64,000 nucleotides of DNA. Source: an uncultured Gammaproteobacteria bacterium. GTDB lineage: Bacteria; Patescibacteriota; Patescibacteriia; Veblenbacterales; UBA10138. The notes beneath the pieces were generated by a model. The model searched no databases, had not been told where the DNA came from, and worked only from the letters and a program-made list of their open reading frames with translations. Positions 2,882-32,081 of this stretch are shown piece by piece. The first letter of the stretch is position 1. Each line of letters opens with the position of its first letter. The DNA is taken from NCBI GenBank assembly GCA_964453605.1, contig CAYVOI010000001.1, positions 310,029 to 374,028 of the forward strand, in the 5' to 3' direction. The position numbers and the translations under genes are program-made.

Positions 2882-3821
2882 CCGCACCTTGCCCGTAGTT
2901 GGGTTGGCCGCGTTGTTCAGCGTCTGGCCAGGGAGCCTGCGCTCTGCAGCCGCTGGGGTTGCTCTGTCGCCTCGGTTGCCGAGCTTAGGGGCGCAGGCCA
3001 TGCTGCCAGAGCCGATAGACTGGTCGCAGGTGCCGTCGCTTACGAGCCTTAACCTGTCAGCCTCCTCAGCGGTGGTCGTGCATCTGCCCGACGGCCGCCT
3101 GGTAGGGGCCTTGGACCCTGAGCACGTAAGGCCGCTGGCTTCGCTCACCAAGCTCATGACCGCGGTGGTGGCGATGGAGGTAGGGCCCAAGCTTGATGAG
3201 CTTGTCACGGTAACCCGTGCTGATAACACTGACTCGCTACTGCCGTACATGAACGCAGGGGATAAGATAAGCTACCTCTTTGTAGCTGATGGGCAGACAC
3301 TCCGGCTGCGGGACGCACTTACCGCCGCGCTGGTGGGTTCAGCCAACAACGCAGCAGCTACCTTGGCCCGGGTGAGCGGACTCTCGGCCGATGATTTTGT
3401 AGCCCGCATGAACACGCGGGCTCAAGTGTTGGGCATGTACGCTAGCCACTTTACCGAGAGCACGGGCCTAAGCCCGGCTAACACCAGCACCGCCTACGAC
3501 TACGCTATCCTGGCCCGCTACGCCTGGACCAACCGGACCCTCCGGCAGGTGTCGGGCTTGCCGCGGGCTACCTTTTCCAGTTCAGATGGCAAGGTGCACC
3601 ACATGCGGAACACCAACGCGCTGGTCACTAAGCCGCCCCCAGGGGTAACGCCACTCGCTAGCAAGACCGGCTACCTTACCGAGGCCGGCTACAACCTGGC
3701 GCTGGAGTGGAGGGCGCCAAACGGTAGTGAGTACCTGCTGGTGCTCATGAACGCGCCGTCGCTCACGGCCCGTTCAGCGGATGCGCTCAAGGTTATACGC
3801 TGGCTTCAAGCAAAAACCTGA
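2811..3821 (+). CDS. D-alanyl-D-alanine carboxypeptidase (peptidase S11, PBP5/6-like)
   Basis: Signal-peptide-like N-terminus. SxxK (ASLTK), SxN (GSANN) and KTG (SKTG) motifs. The 5' end overlaps the scpB stop, so the true start may be a downstream ATG (for example 2826). Confidence 0.75.
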   Translation: MQPCLSMPTLPTFSKLKNLALRLSRTLPVVGLAALFSVWPGSLRSAAAGVALSPRLPSLGAQAMLPEPIDWSQVPSLTSLNLSASSAVVVHLPDGRLVGALDPEHVRPLASLTKLMTAVVAMEVGPKLDELVTVTRADNTDSLLPYMNAGDKISYLFVADGQTLRLRDALTAALVGSANNAAATLARVSGLSADDFVARMNTRAQVLGMYASHFTESTGLSPANTSTAYDYAILARYAWTNRTLRQVSGLPRATFSSSDGKVHHMRNTNALVTKPPPGVTPLASKTGYLTEAGYNLALEWRAPNGSEYLLVLMNAPSLTARSADALKVIRWLQAKT

Positions 3822-5477: not shown

Positions 5478-6409
5478 TCGACGTGGTGCTGTGGGTAGTC
5501 CTCACCTTAAGCGTGGTGGGGCTTATTGGCTTGGTGGTACGTAAGCTCCCCGTACTCCGGGTGATAGACACAGCTCAGCTCAGCTCCGTAAATCAGAGCC
5601 TGCTCAAGCTGAAGCTCCTCGAGCAGCGCCTGAGGCGTAAGGTGCAGAGCCTCGTGCAACGAGCGAGCCGTAACCTGCCTGCCGCTGGTAAACTTATCGC
5701 CCGCCGTATGGGTAGTGTGCATCAGGTTTTTCAGGACGTGACGAGTCGAATAGAGCGTAAGCTAGAGCGGCACACCGCTGCGTCTGCCAGCGCGGCCGAC
5801 CTCATGGCCCAGGCTGAGGCCGCGCTGAAGAGTGGTGGCTACGAGACGGCTGAGGCTAAGTACCTCGCCGTCCTACGTAGTGATGCTCATAGCCTAGGAG
5901 CTTATGAAGGCTTGGGAGCAGTGTACCTGGATGCACGAGAGTACGAGCAGGCCAGGGAAGTGTTTGAGTACCTGGTGGGGAGGGGCGTGGACAGTGCCCA
6001 CCTGGGGCTGGCGCGCGCTAGCCTAGGGCAAGGCCAGCTCGAGCTGGCGCGCGCCGAGTACCAGCAGGCGCTGGCCCACCTCACGTCACCTCAGCTCCTG
6101 ATAGAACTGGCGCAAGTGCTCCAAGAGCTCGGCAACTCCACTGAGGCCTTTACCTACCTCAAAGAGGCTCGAGCGCTAGAACCCAAGAACCCTAAGCTCC
6201 TTGACTTTTACATCGAACTCAGTATAGTAACTGGGCAACCAATTGAAGCCCAAAGCGCCCTGGACGCTCTCCGCGAGGTAAACCCCGAGAACCAGAAGAT
6301 CCCCGAGCTAGCTCAGGCCGTGCGTAAGCTGGCGGACAAGCTGAAGCTCAAGCGGCCGCGCGCGGCCACGAGCACAACCTTTGGTGTGCCGACCAGGCGC
6401 AAGGCTTAA
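5471..6409 (+). CDS. Membrane-anchored TPR-repeat protein
   Basis: N-terminal TM helix. Repeated TPR-like A/L/Y/E pattern (AEAKYLAVL..., EYQQALAHL...). Confidence 0.55.
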   Translation: MVIDVVLWVVLTLSVVGLIGLVVRKLPVLRVIDTAQLSSVNQSLLKLKLLEQRLRRKVQSLVQRASRNLPAAGKLIARRMGSVHQVFQDVTSRIERKLERHTAASASAADLMAQAEAALKSGGYETAEAKYLAVLRSDAHSLGAYEGLGAVYLDAREYEQAREVFEYLVGRGVDSAHLGLARASLGQGQLELARAEYQQALAHLTSPQLLIELAQVLQELGNSTEAFTYLKEARALEPKNPKLLDFYIELSIVTGQPIEAQSALDALREVNPENQKIPELAQAVRKLADKLKLKRPRAATSTTFGVPTRRKA

Positions 6410-6415
6410 CAGTTC

Positions 6416-6648
6416 CTAGGCCGTTGTAATCGGGCTACAGGCCCTCATACATCGGCATCGTTCGGAAGAAATGAACCTCGGTTCATTTCGTTCCTCACTC
6501 GCCGTTGTAGCTTCCGCCTCCACTCTCGGCTTCGGCGGACAAGCAGCTGGCACGTACTTTGATAACGTTCCTTCACTATGGGGTTGAAGGTTTTCTTGAC
6601 CCGCTGCCTTGTGCCGATGTAGCTGGAGCTGGCCCCACCCCTTCTCTT
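6416..6648 (+). repeat. Degenerate tRNA-Thr 5'-end fragments and hairpins upstream of tRNA-Thr(GGU)
   Basis: gccgttgta / gccgatgta (tRNA-Thr 5' acceptor plus D start) recurs at about 6421, 6511 and 6621. The 6421 copy closes a minihelix (gccgttg..catcggc). A 9-bp hairpin gaaatgaac-ctcg-gttcatttc is also present. Confidence 0.4.
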
Positions 6649-6724
6649 GCCGTTGTAGCTCAGCTGGTAGAGCAACTCCATGGTAAGGAGTAGGTCGCCG
6701 GTTCAATTCCGGCCAACGGCTCCA
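6649..6724 (+). tRNA. tRNA-Thr (anticodon GGU)
   Basis: Cloverleaf: acceptor gccgttg/caacggc, D arm agctcagctggtagagc, anticodon loop atGGTaa, T arm gccggttcaattccggc, encoded CCA. Confidence 0.85.
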
Positions 6725-6792
6725 GAAGGGGTGGGGTAAATGGCGCAACTCCATGCTTGCCCAGTAGGGAATTGCAAAGCGATTCTGCTTCT

Positions 6793-6836
6793 GGGGTAAG
6801 GAGTAGGTCGCCGGTTCAATTCCGGCCATCGGCTCC
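6793..6836 (+). repeat. Partial duplicate of tRNA-Thr(GGU) 3' portion (anticodon-loop 3' side to CCA), 1 mismatch
   Basis: ggtaaggagtaggtcgccggttcaattccggccatcggctcca is near-identical to 6682..6724. No matching 5' acceptor strand upstream. Confidence 0.75.
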
Positions 6837-6928
6837 AGGCAGCGGGCCAAGCCGGCCACGGGCCGTAAAGCCCTCGCGGGCCCACGGCCCTTTACGAGGC
6901 TCCACGTTCCTTTTACGTTTTTGGTCTC

Positions 6929-7014
6929 GGGTGGGTATCGAAGTGGTCAAACGAGACTGACTGTAAATCAGTTGCCTTCGGGCTTCGCAGGTTCGAATCC
7001 TGCCCCACCCACCA
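6929..7014 (+). tRNA. tRNA-Tyr (anticodon GUA), class II long variable arm
   Basis: Acceptor gggtggg/cccaccc, anticodon loop ctGTAaa, long variable arm, T arm gcaggttcgaatcctgc, encoded CCA. Confidence 0.85.
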
Positions 7015-7087
7015 CGTAAAGCTCGCACAGCTCGCCATGTGGTATTAAAATAGTTGTAAGTGGTGCACCCCGTAGAGGTGCGTCAGC

Positions 7088-7123
7088 ACCTTCTTCGGGG
7101 TTCGAATCCTGCCCCACCCACCA
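7088..7123 (+). repeat. Partial duplicate of tRNA-Tyr 3' end (variable-arm remnant, T arm, acceptor, CCA)
   Basis: ggggttcgaatcctgccccacccacca is identical to the 3' 27 nt of the tRNA-Tyr at 6988..7014. Confidence 0.8.
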
Positions 7124-7191
7124 TTCGGCTCGCTTCGCTCGCTCATGGTAAACCAAGCGAGTCGAATGCCCCGAGCCGAGCCGAGGGGTTG
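7123..7191 (+). repeat. Hairpin plus conserved motif (gagtcgaatgcc ccgagccgagccgaggggttg) shared with the tRNA-Pro locus at 31928..32030
   Basis: 13-bp stem attcggctcgctt/aagcgagtcgaat with one G-U pair. The motif gagtcgaatgcc at 7159..7170 matches 31989..32000 exactly. Confidence 0.6.
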
Positions 7192-7206
7192 AAAAACAAG
7201 CGTGCT

Positions 7207-7407
7207 ATGGGTACACTATACTACGTTTATATGATGCGCTGCTCCGACGGTACGTTCTACGTCGGGATGACAGTCAACCTCGCGGCACGAGAAGCTCGTC
7301 ACATTCGAGGTGATGGCGCGAAGTTTACCAAGTCACATGGAGGAGAACGTATAGTATATCGAGAGCCACATGCTACGTATTTAACTGCACGGCGTAGAGA
7401 GATATAG
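7207..7407 (+). CDS. Stand-alone GIY-YIG nuclease domain protein (YhbQ/UPF0213-like)
   Basis: YYVYMMRCSDGTFYVGMTVNLAAREARH is a GIY-YIG motif; an ERIVYRE glutamate is present. About 66 aa from ATG 7207; the track ORF starts further upstream at an alternative codon. Confidence 0.7.
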   Translation: MGTLYYVYMMRCSDGTFYVGMTVNLAAREARHIRGDGAKFTKSHGGERIVYREPHATYLTARRREI

Positions 7408-7464
7408 ATAAAGAACTGGCGCCGCGAGAAGAAAGAACGTTTACTTTTAGGCCTTAAGCCGTAG

Positions 7465-7539
7465 GCCAGCGTAGCTCAGTGGTAGAGCAACTGTTTTGTA
7501 AACAGTAGGTCGTCGGTTCGACCCCGACCGCTGGCTCCA
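7465..7539 (+). tRNA. tRNA-Thr (anticodon UGU)
   Basis: Acceptor gccagcg/cgctggc, D arm gctcagtggtagagc, anticodon stem actgt/acagt with loop ttTGTaa, T arm gtcggttcgaccccgac, CCA. Flanked by gccttaag direct repeats. Confidence 0.85.
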
Positions 7540-7576
7540 GCCTTAAGTCATCTTATCCGTTTTTGTTTGCCCTCGT

Positions 7577-7732
7577 ATGTCGCAAGATAACCTCGTTAAG
7601 CTTGAGTGCAGTGTGTGTCACCGCATTACCTACCACACCTTCCGCAACAAGAAGAAGGTCAAGGCGCGGCTGGAAACCATGAAGCACTGCCCGTGGTGCA
7701 AGAAGCACACGCTCCACAAGGAGACGAAGTAG
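7577..7732 (+). CDS. rpmG: 50S ribosomal protein L33 (zinc-ribbon type)
   Basis: 51-aa ORF not in the ORF track (<60 aa). MSQDNLVKLECSVCHRITYHTFRNKKKVKARLETMKHCPWCKKHTLHKETK matches the L33 pattern (C-x2-C...C-x2-C and KHT.HKE.K). Confidence 0.85.
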   Translation: MSQDNLVKLECSVCHRITYHTFRNKKKVKARLETMKHCPWCKKHTLHKETK

Positions 7733-7757
7733 CTTACTACTGCCACGTCTCCCGTTT

Positions 7758-7831
7758 GGGGGGTTCGTTCAGTGGTAGGACTTCGGTCTCCAAAACCGAT
7801 AACGTGGGTTCGATTCCTACACCCCCTGCCA
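7758..7831 (+). tRNA. tRNA-Trp (anticodon CCA)
   Basis: Acceptor ggggggt/accccct (G1-U72 wobble), anticodon stem tcggt/accga with loop ctCCAaa, T arm gtgggttcgattcctac, encoded CCA. Confidence 0.85.
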
Positions 7832-7868
7832 TGAAAAATTCAGTGGATTGTTCCACTGGATTTTTCAT
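7832..7868. terminator. Perfect 17-bp-stem hairpin immediately 3' of tRNA-Trp
   Basis: atgaaaaattcagtgga-ttgt-tccactggatttttcat. A related hairpin follows the downstream partial tRNA-Trp copy at 7983..8018. Confidence 0.6.
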
Positions 7869-7956
7869 TGTGTGAGTAGGAATCGAAGGGCGCGAGATAG
7901 GCGAGCGAGTTGGCTCGAGCTCGCCTGAGTGTAGCGCCCAGGCCCCGAGTCGGAGC

Positions 7957-7982
7957 GAGGGGGATTCCTACACCCCCTGCCA
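7957..7982 (+). repeat. Partial duplicate of tRNA-Trp 3' end (T-loop 3' side, acceptor, CCA) preceded by gagtcggagcgaggggg
   Basis: attcctacaccccctgcca is identical to 7813..7831. The preceding GGGGG can pair with the CCCCC of the acceptor strand to form a minihelix. Confidence 0.8.
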
Positions 7983-8091
7983 GGAAAAAACAGTTCCACC
8001 TTGGGACTGCTTTTTCCTGATGGCTAACGAGGGATCGAAGGTCATGCCTATAGGTATACACTCTTTCGTTTAGGAGTGCTAGACTAGAGCT

Positions 8092-8508
8092 ATGCGAGCA
8101 GAGGCACTAAAGTATGTAGCTATACTAGGGTTGCTGGCTTTTCTGGCCGTGGGAGTTTTTGCTGCTGCTCATATTATGGAAATGCCGATGAATGAGCACG
8201 GTGTAATGACCGGCTGTTGGTTCACGGGCATGGCTGGCCCCTGCCCCATGACCCTGAGTGAACATGTGGCGTCTTGGCACAGCCTTTTCACTAGCGTTCC
8301 GACTACATCCGACACTTTGTCGCTCGTTGTACTCGTTCTAGCGGTATTGCTGGTAGTCCCGCGTTGGTTCGAACGATACCGCAGGTGGGTGGCGGCACGA
8401 CTGGCACTTCTCCCCAGACTGTACCTGAAGTATCACCCCAACCTGACTCTCGCCACTTCGCTACGGGAAGCATTTTCTCAGGGCATTCTCAATCCTAAAG
8501 TGTACTAG
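8092..8508 (+). CDS. Small membrane protein (138 aa)
   Basis: Two or three TM segments. No recognisable motif. Confidence 0.45.
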   Translation: MRAEALKYVAILGLLAFLAVGVFAAAHIMEMPMNEHGVMTGCWFTGMAGPCPMTLSEHVASWHSLFTSVPTTSDTLSLVVLVLAVLLVVPRWFERYRRWVAARLALLPRLYLKYHPNLTLATSLREAFSQGILNPKVY

Positions 8509-8528
8509 CTGGTAGCCAATCTTTATGC

Positions 8529-8554
8529 TTGCGTCTTCCGACGCAGGTTTTTTC
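8529..8554 (+). terminator. Rho-independent terminator
   Basis: tgcgtc-ttcc-gacgca followed by ggtttttt. Confidence 0.7.
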
Positions 8555-8577
8555 GTGACATTACTTACTAAAATTCT

Positions 8578-9396
8578 ATGGAAACATTTCCTCAAACCCA
8601 ATATTCAGAATCCAATTCCGTTCCTCAAGGTGCTGTACCAAGTATGTTCGCCGGTGCCTCGCCTAAACTCACCTTCATCATGGGTTTGGTGACCGGTATC
8701 GCCGTCGTTAGCCTGGCAGGCTTTGTACTAGCTGCCAGCTACGGCTTATCCGGTCGCGCTAGCAGTGCGCTCGGCTCTGCAACTGTAGCAGTCCAAGGCA
8801 CCACCACACCTACACCCTCTGCCGCACCCTCACCCACTTCGCCACCAGCTGCGCCAGGCAAGGCAAACGTCACCCTTAAGCCCGACGACCACATCCGTGG
8901 TCCCAAGGACGCCAAGGTAGTGCTCGTTGAGTACTCTGACCTTGAGTGCCCCTTCTGCAAACGCTTCCACCCCCAAATGCAGCAGCTCATGCAGGAGTTT
9001 TCCGGTCAGGTGGCCTGGGTGTACCGCCACTTCCCGCTCTCATTCCACCAGAACGCCGAGAAAGAGGCTGAGGCCGCAGAGTGCGTGGGTAAGCTCGGTG
9101 GTAATGATAAGTTTTGGGCTTATGTGAACAAGATATTTGAACGTACGACCTCGAACGGTACTGGCTTTGCTTTAGATAAACTAGGGCCGCTGGCGGCAGA
9201 AGTAGGGGTTTCCCAGGGTAAGTTCCAAAGCTGCCTTGATAGCGGCGAGTTTACGGCCCACGTGCAGCAGGACGAGCAGGAAGGCACGGCCTTTGGTGTG
9301 AACGGCACCCCCACTACGTTCGTGAACGGGCAGCCAGTTGAAGGCGCGGTACCCTATGAGCAGTTGAAGCAGGTGGTGCAGAGCTTACTGAAGTAG
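8578..9396 (+). CDS. Membrane-anchored DsbA-like thiol:disulfide oxidoreductase
   Basis: N-terminal TM helix, a Pro/Thr/Ser linker, and a thioredoxin-fold domain with CPFC active site (LECPFCKRFHP). DsbA-family pattern. Confidence 0.7.
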   Translation: METFPQTQYSESNSVPQGAVPSMFAGASPKLTFIMGLVTGIAVVSLAGFVLAASYGLSGRASSALGSATVAVQGTTTPTPSAAPSPTSPPAAPGKANVTLKPDDHIRGPKDAKVVLVEYSDLECPFCKRFHPQMQQLMQEFSGQVAWVYRHFPLSFHQNAEKEAEAAECVGKLGGNDKFWAYVNKIFERTTSNGTGFALDKLGPLAAEVGVSQGKFQSCLDSGEFTAHVQQDEQEGTAFGVNGTPTTFVNGQPVEGAVPYEQLKQVVQSLLK

Positions 9397-9417
9397 TCTA
9401 AAAGCCACAGAGGTAGT

Positions 9418-9984
9418 ATGTCACCCACTATGAGCACTCCACTAGTCGCCATAGGCCGAGCCCTGGCTACCGTATTTCGCCAGTGGCGGTATATCGTGCT
9501 GACCGTAACAGTAGCCATGCTACTGTTCTTACTCGTGGCTTGGATACGCAACTTCTGGTTCCTGTGGTATGTCTTCACTACGCCCGCCTTCAGTTGGGGC
9601 ACTCGGTTTAGCCTGCTCAGTGGCACATTCGCCATGTTTAGGCTCAACACCACGCTGCCTCGCCTCGTATTGTCCGTAACGCTGGTGGTGCTCGCGGGCA
9701 TTAACGTGAGCCTGCTTGTGTTCTACCTCAAGCGCCGGCTGACCCAAGCAGGTGGGGTGGGCACCAGCCTCCTTGGTACGGTGCTCGGCGTACTTGGCAT
9801 TGGCTGCGCTTCGTGTGGTTCGGTTATTCTCACCTTGCTCATCGGCTTTAGCGCCACCGCGAGCTTCTTAGGGTTACTCCCGCTCAGGGGAGCTGAGTTT
9901 GGCCTGGCGGGAGTAACCCTGCTCTTAGGTTCCATCTACCTTACAGCCAAGAAAATTAACAATCCTGTGCTATGTAAAATTTAA
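9418..9984 (+). CDS. Polytopic membrane protein with an intramembrane G-C-x-x-C-G motif
   Basis: 188 aa, about 5 TM helices. The only internal cysteines are GIGCASCGSV inside a predicted TM segment. A C-terminal Cys is also present. Confidence 0.45.
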   Translation: MSPTMSTPLVAIGRALATVFRQWRYIVLTVTVAMLLFLLVAWIRNFWFLWYVFTTPAFSWGTRFSLLSGTFAMFRLNTTLPRLVLSVTLVVLAGINVSLLVFYLKRRLTQAGGVGTSLLGTVLGVLGIGCASCGSVILTLLIGFSATASFLGLLPLRGAEFGLAGVTLLLGSIYLTAKKINNPVLCKI

Positions 9985-10003
9985 GTGTTATACCTGTACA
10001 CCC

Positions 10004-10702
10004 ATGACTAAGCGTTCCATAACAACATTTATCATTGGCGCCATCATCCTTACGGCAAGTTTGATAGCTGGTTCGTTCTTACTTATCTCTCGTGGCCAAG
10101 GTGACGTAGTGAGTACCGAAGCTTTGGCAGCAGATAAGGCCATCTATGACAGTATCCCAACCGAAGCGGGTAAGGTGAATTTCATGCGGCAGAGCGGGAG
10201 CCTAACCAAAGCCGTTAACCCCGAACTCGTAGACCTCGACAGCCAAGTTATCTCCTGTGACCCGAGCGTGGATGGTTTATTGGGGGGCAACCCCACCACC
10301 GGCGGCAGCTGCGCGGCCGGACCAACGGCACTCAAGAGCACCCAGGGCATGTACCTTAGCGGTCAGTGCTGTAGCACTATAACCGACCCTACCGAGTACC
10401 ATGAGAACCTGGAAAAACTACAAGCCTACAAGAGTATGCCCGATATTGTGCTCGACCCCATGCACACGCCTATTGCTTTAGCGAAACAGTGGATTGACTA
10501 CGACCATGCCACGACCCTCACCGCTGACGAGCAGAAGGTGTATGACCAAGCCTATGCTATCTCCAAAGAGAAACCCTGCTGCTGCAAGTGCTGGCACTAC
10601 TTTGTGAACGAAGGCATTGCCAAGAAGATGATTAAGGACGGTACGTTCAACGCGCAGCAGATTGCCGACTACTGGGACGCCTCGGATATCTGTGGTGCGT
10701 AG
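10004..10702 (+). CDS. Membrane-anchored extracytoplasmic Cys-rich protein (10 Cys, including CC and CCCKC clusters)
   Basis: N-terminal TM anchor, then a soluble domain with GQCCST and KPCCCKCWHYF motifs. Confidence 0.45.
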   Translation: MTKRSITTFIIGAIILTASLIAGSFLLISRGQGDVVSTEALAADKAIYDSIPTEAGKVNFMRQSGSLTKAVNPELVDLDSQVISCDPSVDGLLGGNPTTGGSCAAGPTALKSTQGMYLSGQCCSTITDPTEYHENLEKLQAYKSMPDIVLDPMHTPIALAKQWIDYDHATTLTADEQKVYDQAYAISKEKPCCCKCWHYFVNEGIAKKMIKDGTFNAQQIADYWDASDICGA

Positions 10703-10718
10703 TACTCGCCTCTGAAGC

Positions 10719-10749
10719 AAAAAGCAGCTCCAAGATGGAGCTGCTTTTT
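10719..10749 (+). terminator. Rho-independent terminator
   Basis: aaaaagcagctcc-aagat-ggagctgcttttt. Confidence 0.7.
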
Positions 10750-10825
10750 GCTGATAACGATATAACATTTTCATGTATCTATGATAAACTTTTGGTAGGT
10801 CTAATTCTGGTAAGCATCAGAACAT

Positions 10826-11449
10826 ATGTACATCTGCCCCATGCATCCGGAAGTGCGCCAAGAGGTGCCCGGCCGCTGCCCTAGGTGTGGTATGAAGCTC
10901 GTACCCGCTGAGGCCGTGCCAGTAAGGTCAGCACCAAGCGATGATCGCGGCTTAGGAACGTTAACGTGGAAAAGCTACGTCCCCCTGATTGTTATCATCG
11001 GACTCATTTTGTGCGTGACAATTGTAGTCTCGTGGACTGATTATATGCTCGGCAGGTTCTCCATATTTCAGTCGGTCGCCTACTTTATGACGGGATTCTT
11101 TATCGTGTTTGCCGGCTTCAAGCTCATGGACCTACCTGGTTTTGCTGAAGGCTACTCCACCTACGATCTTTTGGCCCGGGCCTGGTTTGGCTATGGTTAC
11201 GTTTACCCCTTCATCGAGCTTACCTTTGGGCTGCTTATGCTCGCTGGTTTGCATCAGGCTTGGTTACCGTGGACTGAGTTTAGCGTTATGGCACTGAGCG
11301 GCTTGGGTGTGGCTATAAAACTAGCCAAGCGCGAGCCATTTATGTGCGCCTGCCTGGGCACGTTCCTCAAAGTGCCGCTTACCTACGTGACCTTGGTTGA
11401 AGATTTTGGCATGGCGGCCTTAGCGTTGGCGCTGGTGTTATTCCGATAG
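10826..11449 (+). CDS. Heavy-metal-binding domain (CPMHP...CPRCGM) fused to a MauE/DoxX-like 4-TM domain
   Basis: N-terminal MYICPMHPEV...PGRCPRCGMKL matches the HMBD found on Cu/Ag efflux components. The C-terminal hydrophobic domain resembles the MauE/DoxX family. Confidence 0.55.
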   Translation: MYICPMHPEVRQEVPGRCPRCGMKLVPAEAVPVRSAPSDDRGLGTLTWKSYVPLIVIIGLILCVTIVVSWTDYMLGRFSIFQSVAYFMTGFFIVFAGFKLMDLPGFAEGYSTYDLLARAWFGYGYVYPFIELTFGLLMLAGLHQAWLPWTEFSVMALSGLGVAIKLAKREPFMCACLGTFLKVPLTYVTLVEDFGMAALALALVLFR

Positions 11450-31386: not shown

Positions 31387-31647
31387 ATGATAGGATATTT
31401 GTATATTTTGAAGAGCTCGCAAACGGGACGTTATTACGTCGGTAGTACGAATGATTTACGTCGGCGACTGGTTCAACATCACCAGGGCCAGACTGCAACA
31501 ACTAAACGTCTCGGCAAGTTTGAGTTAGTTTTTTCTCAGGAGTTTAGTTCGCTAGCAGAAGCGAGGCTAGCCGAACGCCGAGTAAAGGAGTGGAAACGAC
31601 GAGATTTTATTGAAAAAATTATCCGTGATGGTAGAATTAAAACTTAA
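31387..31647 (+). CDS. Stand-alone GIY-YIG nuclease domain protein (YhbQ/UPF0213-like)
   Basis: GYLYILKSSQTGRYYVGSTNDLRRRLVQHHQG plus a downstream ...ERRVKEW glutamate. ATG at 31387; the track start at 31378 is TTG. Confidence 0.7.
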   Translation: MIGYLYILKSSQTGRYYVGSTNDLRRRLVQHHQGQTATTKRLGKFELVFSQEFSSLAEARLAERRVKEWKRRDFIEKIIRDGRIKT

Positions 31648-31669
31648 CATGTGATGTTGAGGTAATTAT

Positions 31670-31745
31670 CGGGGTATGGCCTAATTGGTAAGGCGCACGC
31701 TTCGGGTGCGTGAGATTCTGGGTTCGAGTCCCAGTACCCCGACCA
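31670..31745 (+). tRNA. tRNA-Pro (anticodon CGG)
   Basis: Acceptor cggggta/taccccg, D arm gcctaattggtaaggc, anticodon stem cacgc/gcgtg with loop ttCGGgt, T arm ctgggttcgagtcccag, CCA. Confidence 0.8.
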
Positions 31746-31784
31746 GACAAATGCGCCGGTAGCGTTACTGGCGCATTTGTCTGC
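31746..31784 (+). terminator. 12-bp-stem hairpin immediately 3' of tRNA-Pro
   Basis: gacaaatgcgcc-ggtagcgttact-ggcgcatttgtc. Confidence 0.55.
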
Positions 31785-31795
31785 TGATTGGTAGT

Positions 31796-31812
31796 ATGGG
31801 ACTCGAAGGGTA
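31796..31812 (+). repeat. Inverted partial copy of the tRNA-Pro T-arm (gggactcgaa = reverse complement of ttcgagtccc)
   Basis: Same arrangement as the inverted T-arm copy gtaggaatcgaa (about 7873) after tRNA-Trp. Confidence 0.5.
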
Positions 31813-31908
31813 CTTTAGAAACGTAAACAGTTTTACGTTGCTAAAGACCCAGGCTTTGGCGGAGCGGTGAGTGTTGTGCTGTAAGCACCACGAGCCGCGG
31901 GGGAGAAG

Positions 31909-31928
31909 GAGTCCCAGTACCCCGACCA
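31909..31928 (+). repeat. Partial duplicate of tRNA-Pro 3' end (copy 1), preceded by gagccgcggggg
   Basis: gagtcccagtaccccgacca is identical to 31726..31745. Confidence 0.8.
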
Positions 31929-32030
31929 TTCGACTCGGCCTTCGACAAGCTCAGGCCTTGCCCATGGTCTACGACCTATAGATGAGCCGAGTCGAATGCC
32001 CTGAGCGAACGAAGTGAGTCGAGGGGCGCT
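31928..32030 (+). repeat. Long hairpin (attcgactcggc...gccgagtcgaat) plus motif gagtcgaatgccctgagc...gagtcgagggg
   Basis: 12-bp stem with a loop of about 46 nt. gagtcgaatgcc at 31989..32000 matches 7159..7170. Confidence 0.6.
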
Positions 32031-32047
32031 GCCCAATACCCCGACCA
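32031..32047 (+). repeat. Diverged partial duplicate of tRNA-Pro 3' end (copy 2)
   Basis: gcccaataccccgacca versus tcccagtaccccgacca. Confidence 0.6.
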
Positions 32048-32081
32048 GCTCCCTATTTTTATTGGTTGTCCTGTATCCCTG

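Follow-up and report, generated by a model that had tools for sequence, protein, structure and literature searches.

The closest described counterparts of the element considered here are the RtT repeats, which were reportedly described in 1991 as an oddity of one E. coli tRNA operon. One of the repeat units has been reported to give rise to an RNA, with a part in the stringent response as perhaps one possibility for its role. In the Rfam library used throughout this work, the RtT model (RF00391, gathering threshold 45 bits) recognizes four units in the E. coli tyrT operon at 133-138 bits, and, of 5426 E. coli genomes, 4700 contain RtT units, at 1 to 9 places each (median 2). In the RtT consensus, GgGaaGGAU pairs with AUCCuuCcC of a 19-nt copy of the tRNA-Tyr 3' end, and the tail ccaCCACCA is unpaired. 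Here we describe an element of about 110 nt and of comparable design, designated element X, which lies directly downstream of a tRNA-Trp gene in a 64,000-nt stretch of DNA (hereafter the window; positions 310,029 to 374,028 of contig CAYVOI010000001.1, assembly GCA_964453605.1). The DNA comes from an organism deposited as an uncultured Gammaproteobacteria bacterium and placed by GTDB among the Patescibacteriota (Veblenbacterales). Loci used for comparison are designated by L and a three-digit number.

The tRNA-Trp gene, which encodes its own CCA, starts 25 nt downstream of rpmG (L33; 7577-7732). Its last 20 nt, GATTCCTACACCCCCTGCCA, comprising the T loop, the 3' strand of the T stem, the 3' strand of the acceptor stem and GCCA (copy 1, 7812-7831), are found again without mismatch at 7963-7982 (copy 2), one base more than the exact 19-nt copy noted in the first-pass annotation of this region. 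The two copies are separated by 131 bp, copy 2 starting 132 nt beyond the tRNA end, and, with one mismatch allowed, extend by 7 further bases to 27 nt (7812-7838 versus 7963-7989). None of 100 shuffled sequences contained two matches to GATTCCTACACCCCCTGCCA. The hairpin after copy 1 (hp1) had been taken for a perfect one of 17 bp; its 17-nt arms are confirmed, but one of the 17 positions is unpaired. Its stem is called on the minus strand by the terminator scan, and the plus strand continues into GATTTTTCAT. The second terminator-like hairpin (hp2) is present as well, and includes a plus-strand terminator-like site at 7991-8009 with the tail CTTTTTCC. The inverted T-arm copy reported at about 7873 is real and lies at 7876-7887 (GTAGGAATCGAA), where all 12 positions are complementary to TTCGATTCCTAC (7809-7820), that is, to T54-C65 of tRNA-Trp; this piece is referred to below as anti-T.

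If 7869-7982 is folded as a single-stranded RNA, a three-way junction is predicted (z = -3.0), in which the helices P1, P2 and P3 are joined by GAA and AGG (Table 1). The 3' strand of P1 is the first part of copy 2 (7963-7971), and the remainder of the copy (7972-7982; acceptor 3' strand and GCCA) is a predicted single-stranded tail preceding hp2. The GAA of the first junction is the complement of tRNA T54-C56, yet it is unpaired inside the element. P2 has a proximal stem GGGCGC/GCGCCC, an internal loop with invariant GAG and G.G.GUAG residues, and a distal stem whose sequence is hypervariable among the 15 type-1 members described below but whose pairing is always kept. P3 contains tandem G.A pairs and a U.G pair, the latter invariant in 15 of 15 type-1 members; because of these pairs, the tRNA-sense strand is considered to be the strand that folds. 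The sense strand of X is that of its tRNA in every member. The stretch between the two hairpins had been described as about 90 nt of GC-rich palindromic filler; instead, it corresponds to a conserved core (P2, AGG, P3) found behind many tRNAs, and on this comparative evidence 7869-7982 belongs to a conserved family of structured elements linked to tRNA genes.

Table 1. Features of the tRNA-Trp locus and the second element X of the window (window coordinates)
Feature	Position	Strand	Evidence and remarks
tRNA-Trp(CCA) gene, CCA encoded	7758-7831	+	ARAGORN; Rfam RF00005, 60.3 bits
Hairpin 1 (hp1), terminator-like, immediately 3' of CCA	7831-7868	+	Arms 7831-7847/7852-7868, 17 nt, 16/17 paired
P1 5' strand, GTAGGAATC	7876-7884	+	Fold, covariation; predicted to pair with 7963-7971, 9 bp
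J1/2, GAA	7885-7887	+	Fold; invariant in 15/15 type-1 members
P2, long hairpin	7888-7939	+	Fold; alignment helices 2 and 3, 6 pairs with compensatory changes
J2/3, AGG, within the invariant CCCAGGC block	7940-7942	+	Fold, alignment
P3 hairpin, CCCC-GA-GU-CGGA-GC-GA-GGGG	7943-7962	+	Fold; helix 4, 3 pairs with compensatory changes
Repeat copy 2, exact 20-nt tRNA-Trp 3' end	7963-7982	+	Repeat search, fold
Hairpin 2 (hp2), terminator-like, after repeat copy 2	7981-8019	+	Arms 7981-7998/8002-8019, 16/18 paired
AGGGATCGAAGG, probable truncated or decayed start of a further unit	8030-8041	+	Repeat comparison; model scans
Second member of X, type 2	31791-31928	+	Pattern, fold, model matches outside training; 28.1 bits, E about 1e-5

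The third inverted T-loop-like piece, previously placed at 8025, exists at 8030-8041 (AGGGATCGAAGG). It is identical in 11 of 12 positions to AGGAATCGAAGG (7878-7889) and complementary in 9 of 10 to the T arm of tRNA-Trp, but only the generic part of the motif is matched. No P2, P3 or 3' copy was found downstream of it, and the covariance models R1 and R2 gave no match at 8030-8041, so that the Trp locus would contain one complete unit and the truncated start of another. Neither ARAGORN nor RF00005 (E up to 10) called a tRNA in 7832-8040, the only call being the tRNA-Trp gene itself, and an Rfam search over the Trp and Pro loci with the same limit returned tRNAs only, with no RtT, ribozyme or tRNA-like family.

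The same region had been read as a duplicated unit of a tRNA 3' minihelix and a hairpin, the copies being functional acceptor minihelices (five G:C pairs, then GCCA) which would be transcribed and CCA-processed, each with its own terminator. The tRNA 3' end and a terminator-like hairpin do occur twice, and on paper GGGGG (7958-7962) can pair with CCCCC (7972-7976), as CGGGG can with CCCCG in the tRNA-Pro element. However, the minimum-energy fold and the family consensus both place the G run in the 3' strand of P3, paired with the C run of that hairpin (CCCC/GGGG), and join the T part of the copy to anti-T. Moreover, in members behind tRNA-Lys, tRNA-His and others the 3' strand of P3 is GAGGAG or GAGCAG, for which no pairing with the acceptor strand is possible, so that the G5:C5 pairing of this window is a coincidence of a C-rich acceptor strand; and within the copy, conservation is lowest in the acceptor and CCA part. 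The minihelix must be regarded as scarcely credible.

Comparison of the Trp locus with 31650-32060, which had been suggested as a check, was positive: the tRNA-Pro(CGG) gene at 31670-31745 is followed by the same architecture, in the order hairpin, anti-T, GAA, P2, AGG, P3 and an exact 19-nt copy of the tRNA 3' end (31910-31928), with the same predicted three-way junction (z = -4.7). The spacers after the two tRNAs share the order anti-T, TCGAAGG, hairpin, CCCAGGC.

In order to find further members, metagenome contigs were scanned for a tRNA 3' end followed 40-70 nt on by TCGAAGGG and then CCCAGGC. This yielded 68 loci, about half of which are chance matches in GC-rich DNA; in the other half the ARAGORN tRNA ends precisely at CCA. 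In 27 loci, as well as in the window (twice) and in L002, the last 14-19 nt of the tRNA are copied, with at most 2 mismatches, right after P3, and the order after the tRNA is hairpin, anti-T, P2, AGGC, P3, 3'-end copy. The tRNAs preceding X are Ser (TGA, CGA, GCT), Lys, Asp, Gln, His, Glu (CTC, TTC), Met, Trp, Gly (TCC, GCC), Cys and Pro, at least 15 tRNA species overall. Members were found in Veblen-, Kerfeld-, Moran- and Parcubacteria metagenomes, and the proteins of the X-bearing contigs fall in clusters named Veblenbacteria, Parcubacteria SG8_24 and Moranbacteria. A scan of genome contigs, which used the type-2 pattern only and is therefore uninformative on type 1, gave 49 matches, 48 of them chance matches in GC-rich genomes and one in a Kerfeldbacteria contig that was already part of the comparison.

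Three subtypes of X can be distinguished, the window Trp element belonging to type 1 and the window Pro element to type 2; the three-way junction is predicted for most type-2 members. Alignment of 15 type-1 members gave a consensus of 25 pairs, 12 of which show changes on both sides with pairing kept. Cells of the alignment are paired in 95.2% of cases, compared with 84.5% after shuffling (none of 500 shuffles reached the observed value) and 38-52% when the partners are slid. P1 covaries with the tRNA, one position being A-U in 8 sequences and U-A in 6, and P3 alternates among UCC/GGA, UGC/GCA and CCC/GGG. P1 comprises on average 7.25 bp when its partner is the copy belonging to the same element, and 4.03 bp when a non-cognate copy of another member is substituted. 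A covariance model (R2) built from 12 non-Trp loci, all behind Ser, Lys, Met and His tRNAs, scores 7871-7974 of the window at 86.8 bits (E = 6e-23) and 31791-31920, the Pro element, at 28.1 bits (E = 9e-6); it found no match in the relatives L001, L003, L053 and L058. Judged by alignment and models, X is thus a covariation-supported family which is widespread in Patescibacteria and absent from Rfam 15, and no description of it was found in our literature searches.

These data contradict the simplest explanation, a chance likeness or a plain tandem duplication private to this strain, which would account for nothing beyond the duplication itself. The exact 20-nt repeat and its absence from the shuffles, the TCGAAGG..CCCAGGC pattern (2 matches in the window against 0.03 expected), the orthologues in L083 and L109, and the members in about 30 independent contigs, which also dispose of the strain-private duplication that the first-pass annotation had named as refuting its reading, are all against it, and on comparative grounds it can be regarded as already refuted.

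An element of equal layout was observed outside Patescibacteria, in a metagenome-assembled genome of Clostridia from camel gut (L106, 4771-4960), where tRNA-Gly(TCC) is followed by a hairpin, anti-T, GAA, a branched core and a 3' copy that is exact over 19 nt. The core differs from that of X, and the element is not matched by the X model. Because of this element, the design may be wider than Patescibacteria.

The source organism, a member of the CPR, stands close to Candidatus Veblenbacteria and Kerfeldbacteria, its L33 being 90% and 82% identical to their homologues, respectively. Syntenic loci of relatives were collected through homologues of L33. The Trp loci of the window, L083 and L109 are orthologous and keep the fold through compensatory changes; L083 has a hairpin homologous to hp1, and hp2 is unrelated between the orthologous loci. 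In all three, the copy tracks the acceptor changes of the tRNA, L109 having CCGCCCCT in both tRNA and copy, so that the identity between them is upheld, be it by selection or by recombination between the repeats. In L001 (Veblenbacteria; L33 90% identical), the tRNA cluster is compact, and tRNA-Trp is followed by a terminator only, without X. L002 (Kerfeldbacteria) has a type-2 X after tRNA-Trp, with a core closer to the window Pro element than to the window Trp element. Two full units stand in tandem in L117, and decayed copies were found in L109 and L119.

X and RtT are alike in several respects. Both lie directly 3' of a tRNA gene in the same orientation; in both, the end of the unit repeats about 19 nt of the tRNA 3' end with its CCA (exactly 20 nt in the window Trp element), and the T-loop/T-stem part of this copy is paired with a segment near the 5' side of the unit, closing a branched structure from which the CCA tail emerges unpaired. 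The RtT hairpin CUC-GA-GC-GCCA-GC-GA-GAG is built like P3 of X (UCC-GA-GU-CGGA-GC-GA-GGA), with tandem G.A pairs. RtT units are repeated, their number varying among strains, and two full units of X stand in tandem in L117. There are also differences. RtT is known only behind tRNA-Tyr of enterobacteria and relatives, whereas X is found behind at least 15 tRNA species in Patescibacteria; P1 spans A59-C68 in RtT (the T stem and three acceptor bases) and G57-N63/65 in X; and X is always parted from its tRNA by a terminator-like hairpin that RtT lacks. RtT overlaps a small ORF (tpr), while for X no search for a conserved ORF was made. In the window, an Rfam scan of 6300-8150 with E up to 10 gave no RtT match. 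Taken together, these comparisons suggest that X is most likely the counterpart of RtT in Patescibacteria by design, not to be filed as a member of RtT.

Accordingly, the reading we favour, to which we give an even chance of being right, is that X is an RtT-like RNA module which is gained, lost and duplicated by recombination at tRNA 3'-end repeats. The plus strand of X would be transcribed, either by read-through of hp1 or from a start of its own, and its RNA would fold into the three-way junction. As X ends in the tRNA's own 3' sequence, it is proposed that the tRNA 3'-end machinery would trim this RNA at CCA, releasing a stable RNA some 110-150 nt long, such as has been reported for RtT. 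Direct repeats, made up of the tRNA 3' end and, at some loci, of the terminator too, would allow units to be duplicated, deleted, swapped and homogenized by recombination; this proposal would account for hp2, for the truncated third piece, for the tandem arrays elsewhere and for the presence or absence of X among close relatives. As to its role, our best guess is that X is a tRNA-matched RNA mimicking part of an uncharged tRNA.

Several observations weigh against an RtT-like RNA module. The covariance models of RtT and X detect no homology in either direction, so that the likeness may be convergent. The compact arrangement of tRNA and X is partly an effect of ascertainment, since the search pattern demanded that X be 40-70 nt from the tRNA end; the only members found without a tRNA-adjacency pattern are the window Trp and Pro elements and L002. 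In every member, tRNA and X are separated by a terminator-like hairpin with a T run, and a scan for promoter-like sites before X found none in this window, so that transcription of X is not assured; TATGAT or TATAAT is present in the spacer of some other loci, in a pattern that is inconsistent between loci. An essential CCA end is argued against by the copy itself: conservation is lowest in its tail (differences from the tRNA amount to 6/243, or 2.5%, at positions 57-65, 21/189, or 11%, in the acceptor strand and 15/108, or 14%, in NCCA), CCA is mutated in L082, L103 and L104, and in four members the copy is interrupted by a 19-20-nt palindrome (L002, L076) or other inserts. Finally, apart from the invariant U.G, G.U pairs (11) are little commoner than A.C mismatches (8), which leaves room for X acting as a folded single strand of DNA.

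The repeats themselves could also be read in terms of integration. Four of the five tRNAs of the window have a copy of their own 3' part 100-180 nt downstream: besides the tRNA-Trp (20 nt) and tRNA-Pro (19 nt) copies, that of tRNA-Tyr is exact over 25 nt, and for tRNA-Thr(GGT) a pattern of 25 nt, reaching from the T arm to CCA, is found again with one mismatch, the copy judged by eye comprising 43 nt (6795-6837) and beginning at the anticodon loop. Repeats of this kind, running from the T loop or, as for tRNA-Thr, from the anticodon loop to CCA, are the classical footprint of tRNA-targeting tyrosine integrases, as reportedly set out by Williams in 2002. The genes beyond tRNA-Trp vary among relatives, and attL/attR sites of T-loop elements share with X the intact tRNA and tandem arrays with older units farther out. 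The repeats might then be attL/attR scars of larger islands or prophages once inserted in the tRNA T loop and nearly all deleted, with X a remnant of an attP arm. Nevertheless, the segment between the repeats of X is only 130-190 bp long and is a conserved structured unit; the compact complete architecture is found in the three loci free of search bias, and again in some 30 other loci, for which the search had demanded adjacency; and the helices of X are preserved by covariation, as would not be expected of random deletion remnants. A core-type site is expected right beside the repeat and not 80-100 nt off, and no integrase is present in or beside any unit. At the Trp locus, Pfam identified L33, a membrane protein and DsbA-like proteins among the neighbouring genes, and no integrase or other element genes beside the repeats. 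The origin of X as an integration scar is, in our opinion, very improbable.

A more serious rival, which we nevertheless consider rather unlikely, is that X is a small non-autonomous mobile element inserted site-specifically in the tRNA T loop, between positions 56 and 57. The inserted unit would consist of the copy from G57 to CCA, hp1, the spacer, anti-T, P2 and P3; its spare 3' end would keep the tRNA gene whole, and the resident 3' end would be displaced downstream. Anti-T, complementary to T54-N65 across the junction, would serve as a guide or would form a duplex copy of the target within a folded single strand, and the recombinase would be supplied in trans. Indeed, the direct repeat begins exactly at G57 in all members, and the TTC on the left side of the junction has its complement in the unpaired GAA. 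Near-identical cores follow different tRNAs (Lys in L082 and L113, Ser in L104, Trp in L109), with differing hp1 and ends, and one and the same tRNA-Trp is followed by different types of X in the window and L002 and by none in L001. In L002, moreover, a terminator resembling that of the empty site of L001 is located after the downstream copy. In the tandem arrays (L117; 8030-8041 of the window) the distal unit is the more degenerate, and the distal anti-T of L117 matches the upstream copy over 10 nt and its own downstream partner over 7 nt only. By GC skew, the sense strand is the lagging-strand template.

The stems of X, hypervariable yet always paired, also resemble integron attC sites. These, like attP(+) of the CTX phage, keep structure rather than sequence in their stems, are strand-specific, and when folded reproduce in their duplex the double-stranded target sequence. 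X differs from both in that no integrase was found, in its three-way junction in place of a bulged hairpin, and in its target, the tRNA T loop. A bolder form of the same idea, which we regard as unlikely, is that X is a guide-directed cassette of about 150 nt that moves in the form of a folded single strand, either DNA or RNA, with RtT as its domesticated or fossil relative. If so, anti-T would find the T loop of the cognate tRNA gene, the cassette would insert between 56 and 57, and since it would bring along its own copy of the tRNA 3' end, an essential gene would never be broken.

Against mobility it should be noted that clustering of the genes around 36 X loci revealed no recurrent recombinase, transposase or reverse transcriptase, only a small GIY-YIG ORF being recurrent, in 4 of them. 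Two scans of viral contigs and a blastn search against phages and plasmids gave no match to X, and neither circular nor empty-site junctions were observed. As hp1 is locus-specific, the unit postulated to be inserted lacks uniformity, and in L079 and L107 the repeat takes in the host terminator. In the proximal unit of L117, anti-T fits the downstream partner better, which is the opposite of the prediction; the two units of this locus, the only informative one, thus disagree. Lastly, the E. coli RtT repeats, of the same design, are not known as mobile.

X was also compared with systems in which part of a tRNA is reused to recruit processing enzymes and set an RNA end, namely plant mitochondrial t-elements, mascRNA and viral tRNA-like structures. 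X differs from these in being missed by RF00005 and ARAGORN and in having no acceptor stem, the acceptor strand being unpaired. Further candidates were rejected. A tRNA or tRNA-like gene on the minus strand, judged by eye, has neither acceptor pairing nor CCA. For a hammerhead or other three-way-junction ribozyme, there is no Rfam match (E up to 10), the CUGANGA...GAAA core is absent, and the junctions are only GAA and AGG(C). A group I intron with anti-T as its internal guide lacks the core motifs and any Rfam match, and for this reading as for the hammerhead a core of 80-100 nt is too small.

The tRNA genes around X carry other traces of turnover. In the window, tRNA-Tyr (6929-7014) is followed at 7040-7123 by a relic of its 3' three-quarters, without an X core, in which the D-loop motif AAGTGGT is recognizable, a hairpin stands in place of the anticodon arm, and the end is the exact 25-nt 3' copy (7099-7123). 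A second repeated module starts directly after CCA at 7124-7190 and 31929-32030 of the window and at 1873-2005 of L053; it has a T-loop-like TTCGRCTCG, a long hairpin formed with CGAGTCGAA, and a P3-like CCCYGAG...GAGGGG hairpin. A third 3' copy, which is degenerate, stands after the module at the Pro locus (32031-32049). In the window and L053 this module lies upstream of a small GIY-YIG ORF. Such ORFs (65-97 aa, with the nuclease domain) were found in or beside the X-carrying tRNA clusters of the window (7210-7407, 31387-31647), L002 (1597-1890), L056 (567-824), L092 and L109. They resemble SegB, a free-standing GIY-YIG homing endonuclease of the tRNA region of phage T4, and by this analogy may contribute to tRNA gene turnover here.

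Nesting of tRNA genes was observed at 6420-6905 of the window. The live tRNA-Thr(GGT) gene (6649-6724), flanked by a leader/trailer inverted repeat (CCCCACCCC / GGGGTGGGG), sits in the D loop of an outer, dead tRNA-Thr copy, which has its 5' fragment upstream and its 3' fragment downstream with complementary acceptor strands, and which is flanked in turn by another inverted repeat and further 5' fragments. Similar nesting occurs in L002 (1060-1345, 1886-2250), L003 (3172-3650), L053 (1290-1690, 2280-2550) and L058 (2598-2730); the flanking repeats differ in sequence between genomes and keep their complementarity, and in the dead copies short stable hairpins substitute for anticodon or T loops. 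A 19-20-nt GC palindrome, CCTGCCTGCCGGCAGGCAGG, is present in the loops of dead tRNA copies of several genomes, its sites being L002 2690-2708, L003 3182-3201, L053 3367-3385, L058 3301-3319, L076 (in the 3' copy) and L119 (after the element). Its halves, in a version lengthened to some 17 nt, are found on either side of live tRNA-Thr genes in L058, L003 and L053, and it looks like the collapsed form of a tRNA-carrying element with terminal inverted repeats.

Swapped alleles of tRNA-Trp were seen in L058 (3200-3362), where a live type-A gene is followed by the dead 3' half of type B; in L053 (3182-3395), where a dead type-A remnant, bearing three hairpin insertions, comes after a live type-B gene; and in L057 (3254-3387), where a dead 5' half precedes a third allele. 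These fragments record gene replacement rather than duplication in place. In one lineage, an ORF for a '23S rRNA intervening sequence protein' (PF05635) sits between rpmG and tRNA-Trp, with inverted repeats on both sides (L053 2796-3143, also L054-L056); L058 has at the same place only a short hairpin (3157-3199), resembling an empty site. On the 3' side of tRNA-Trp, the window (8092-11449) encodes a small membrane protein, a DsbA-like thioredoxin, two proteins without Pfam match and an HMBD/MauE protein. These genes differ from those in L001, L002 and L003, forming a variable region adjoining the tRNA, and secE-nusG, expected there from other bacteria, is not at 8092-11449.

For the annotation of these reduced genomes, it matters that many intergenic regions adjacent to tRNA genes are filled with tRNA fragments and elements such as X, which yield spurious ORFs and can pass for integration scars. 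The RtT design proves to be that of a widespread and evolutionarily maintained family, matched in Patescibacteria one-to-one to many tRNAs. With its covariation-backed structures, many natural variants and clear predictions, the family makes the old question about RtT testable, that is, whether such a unit is a tRNA mimic, a by-product of processing or a selfish repeat.

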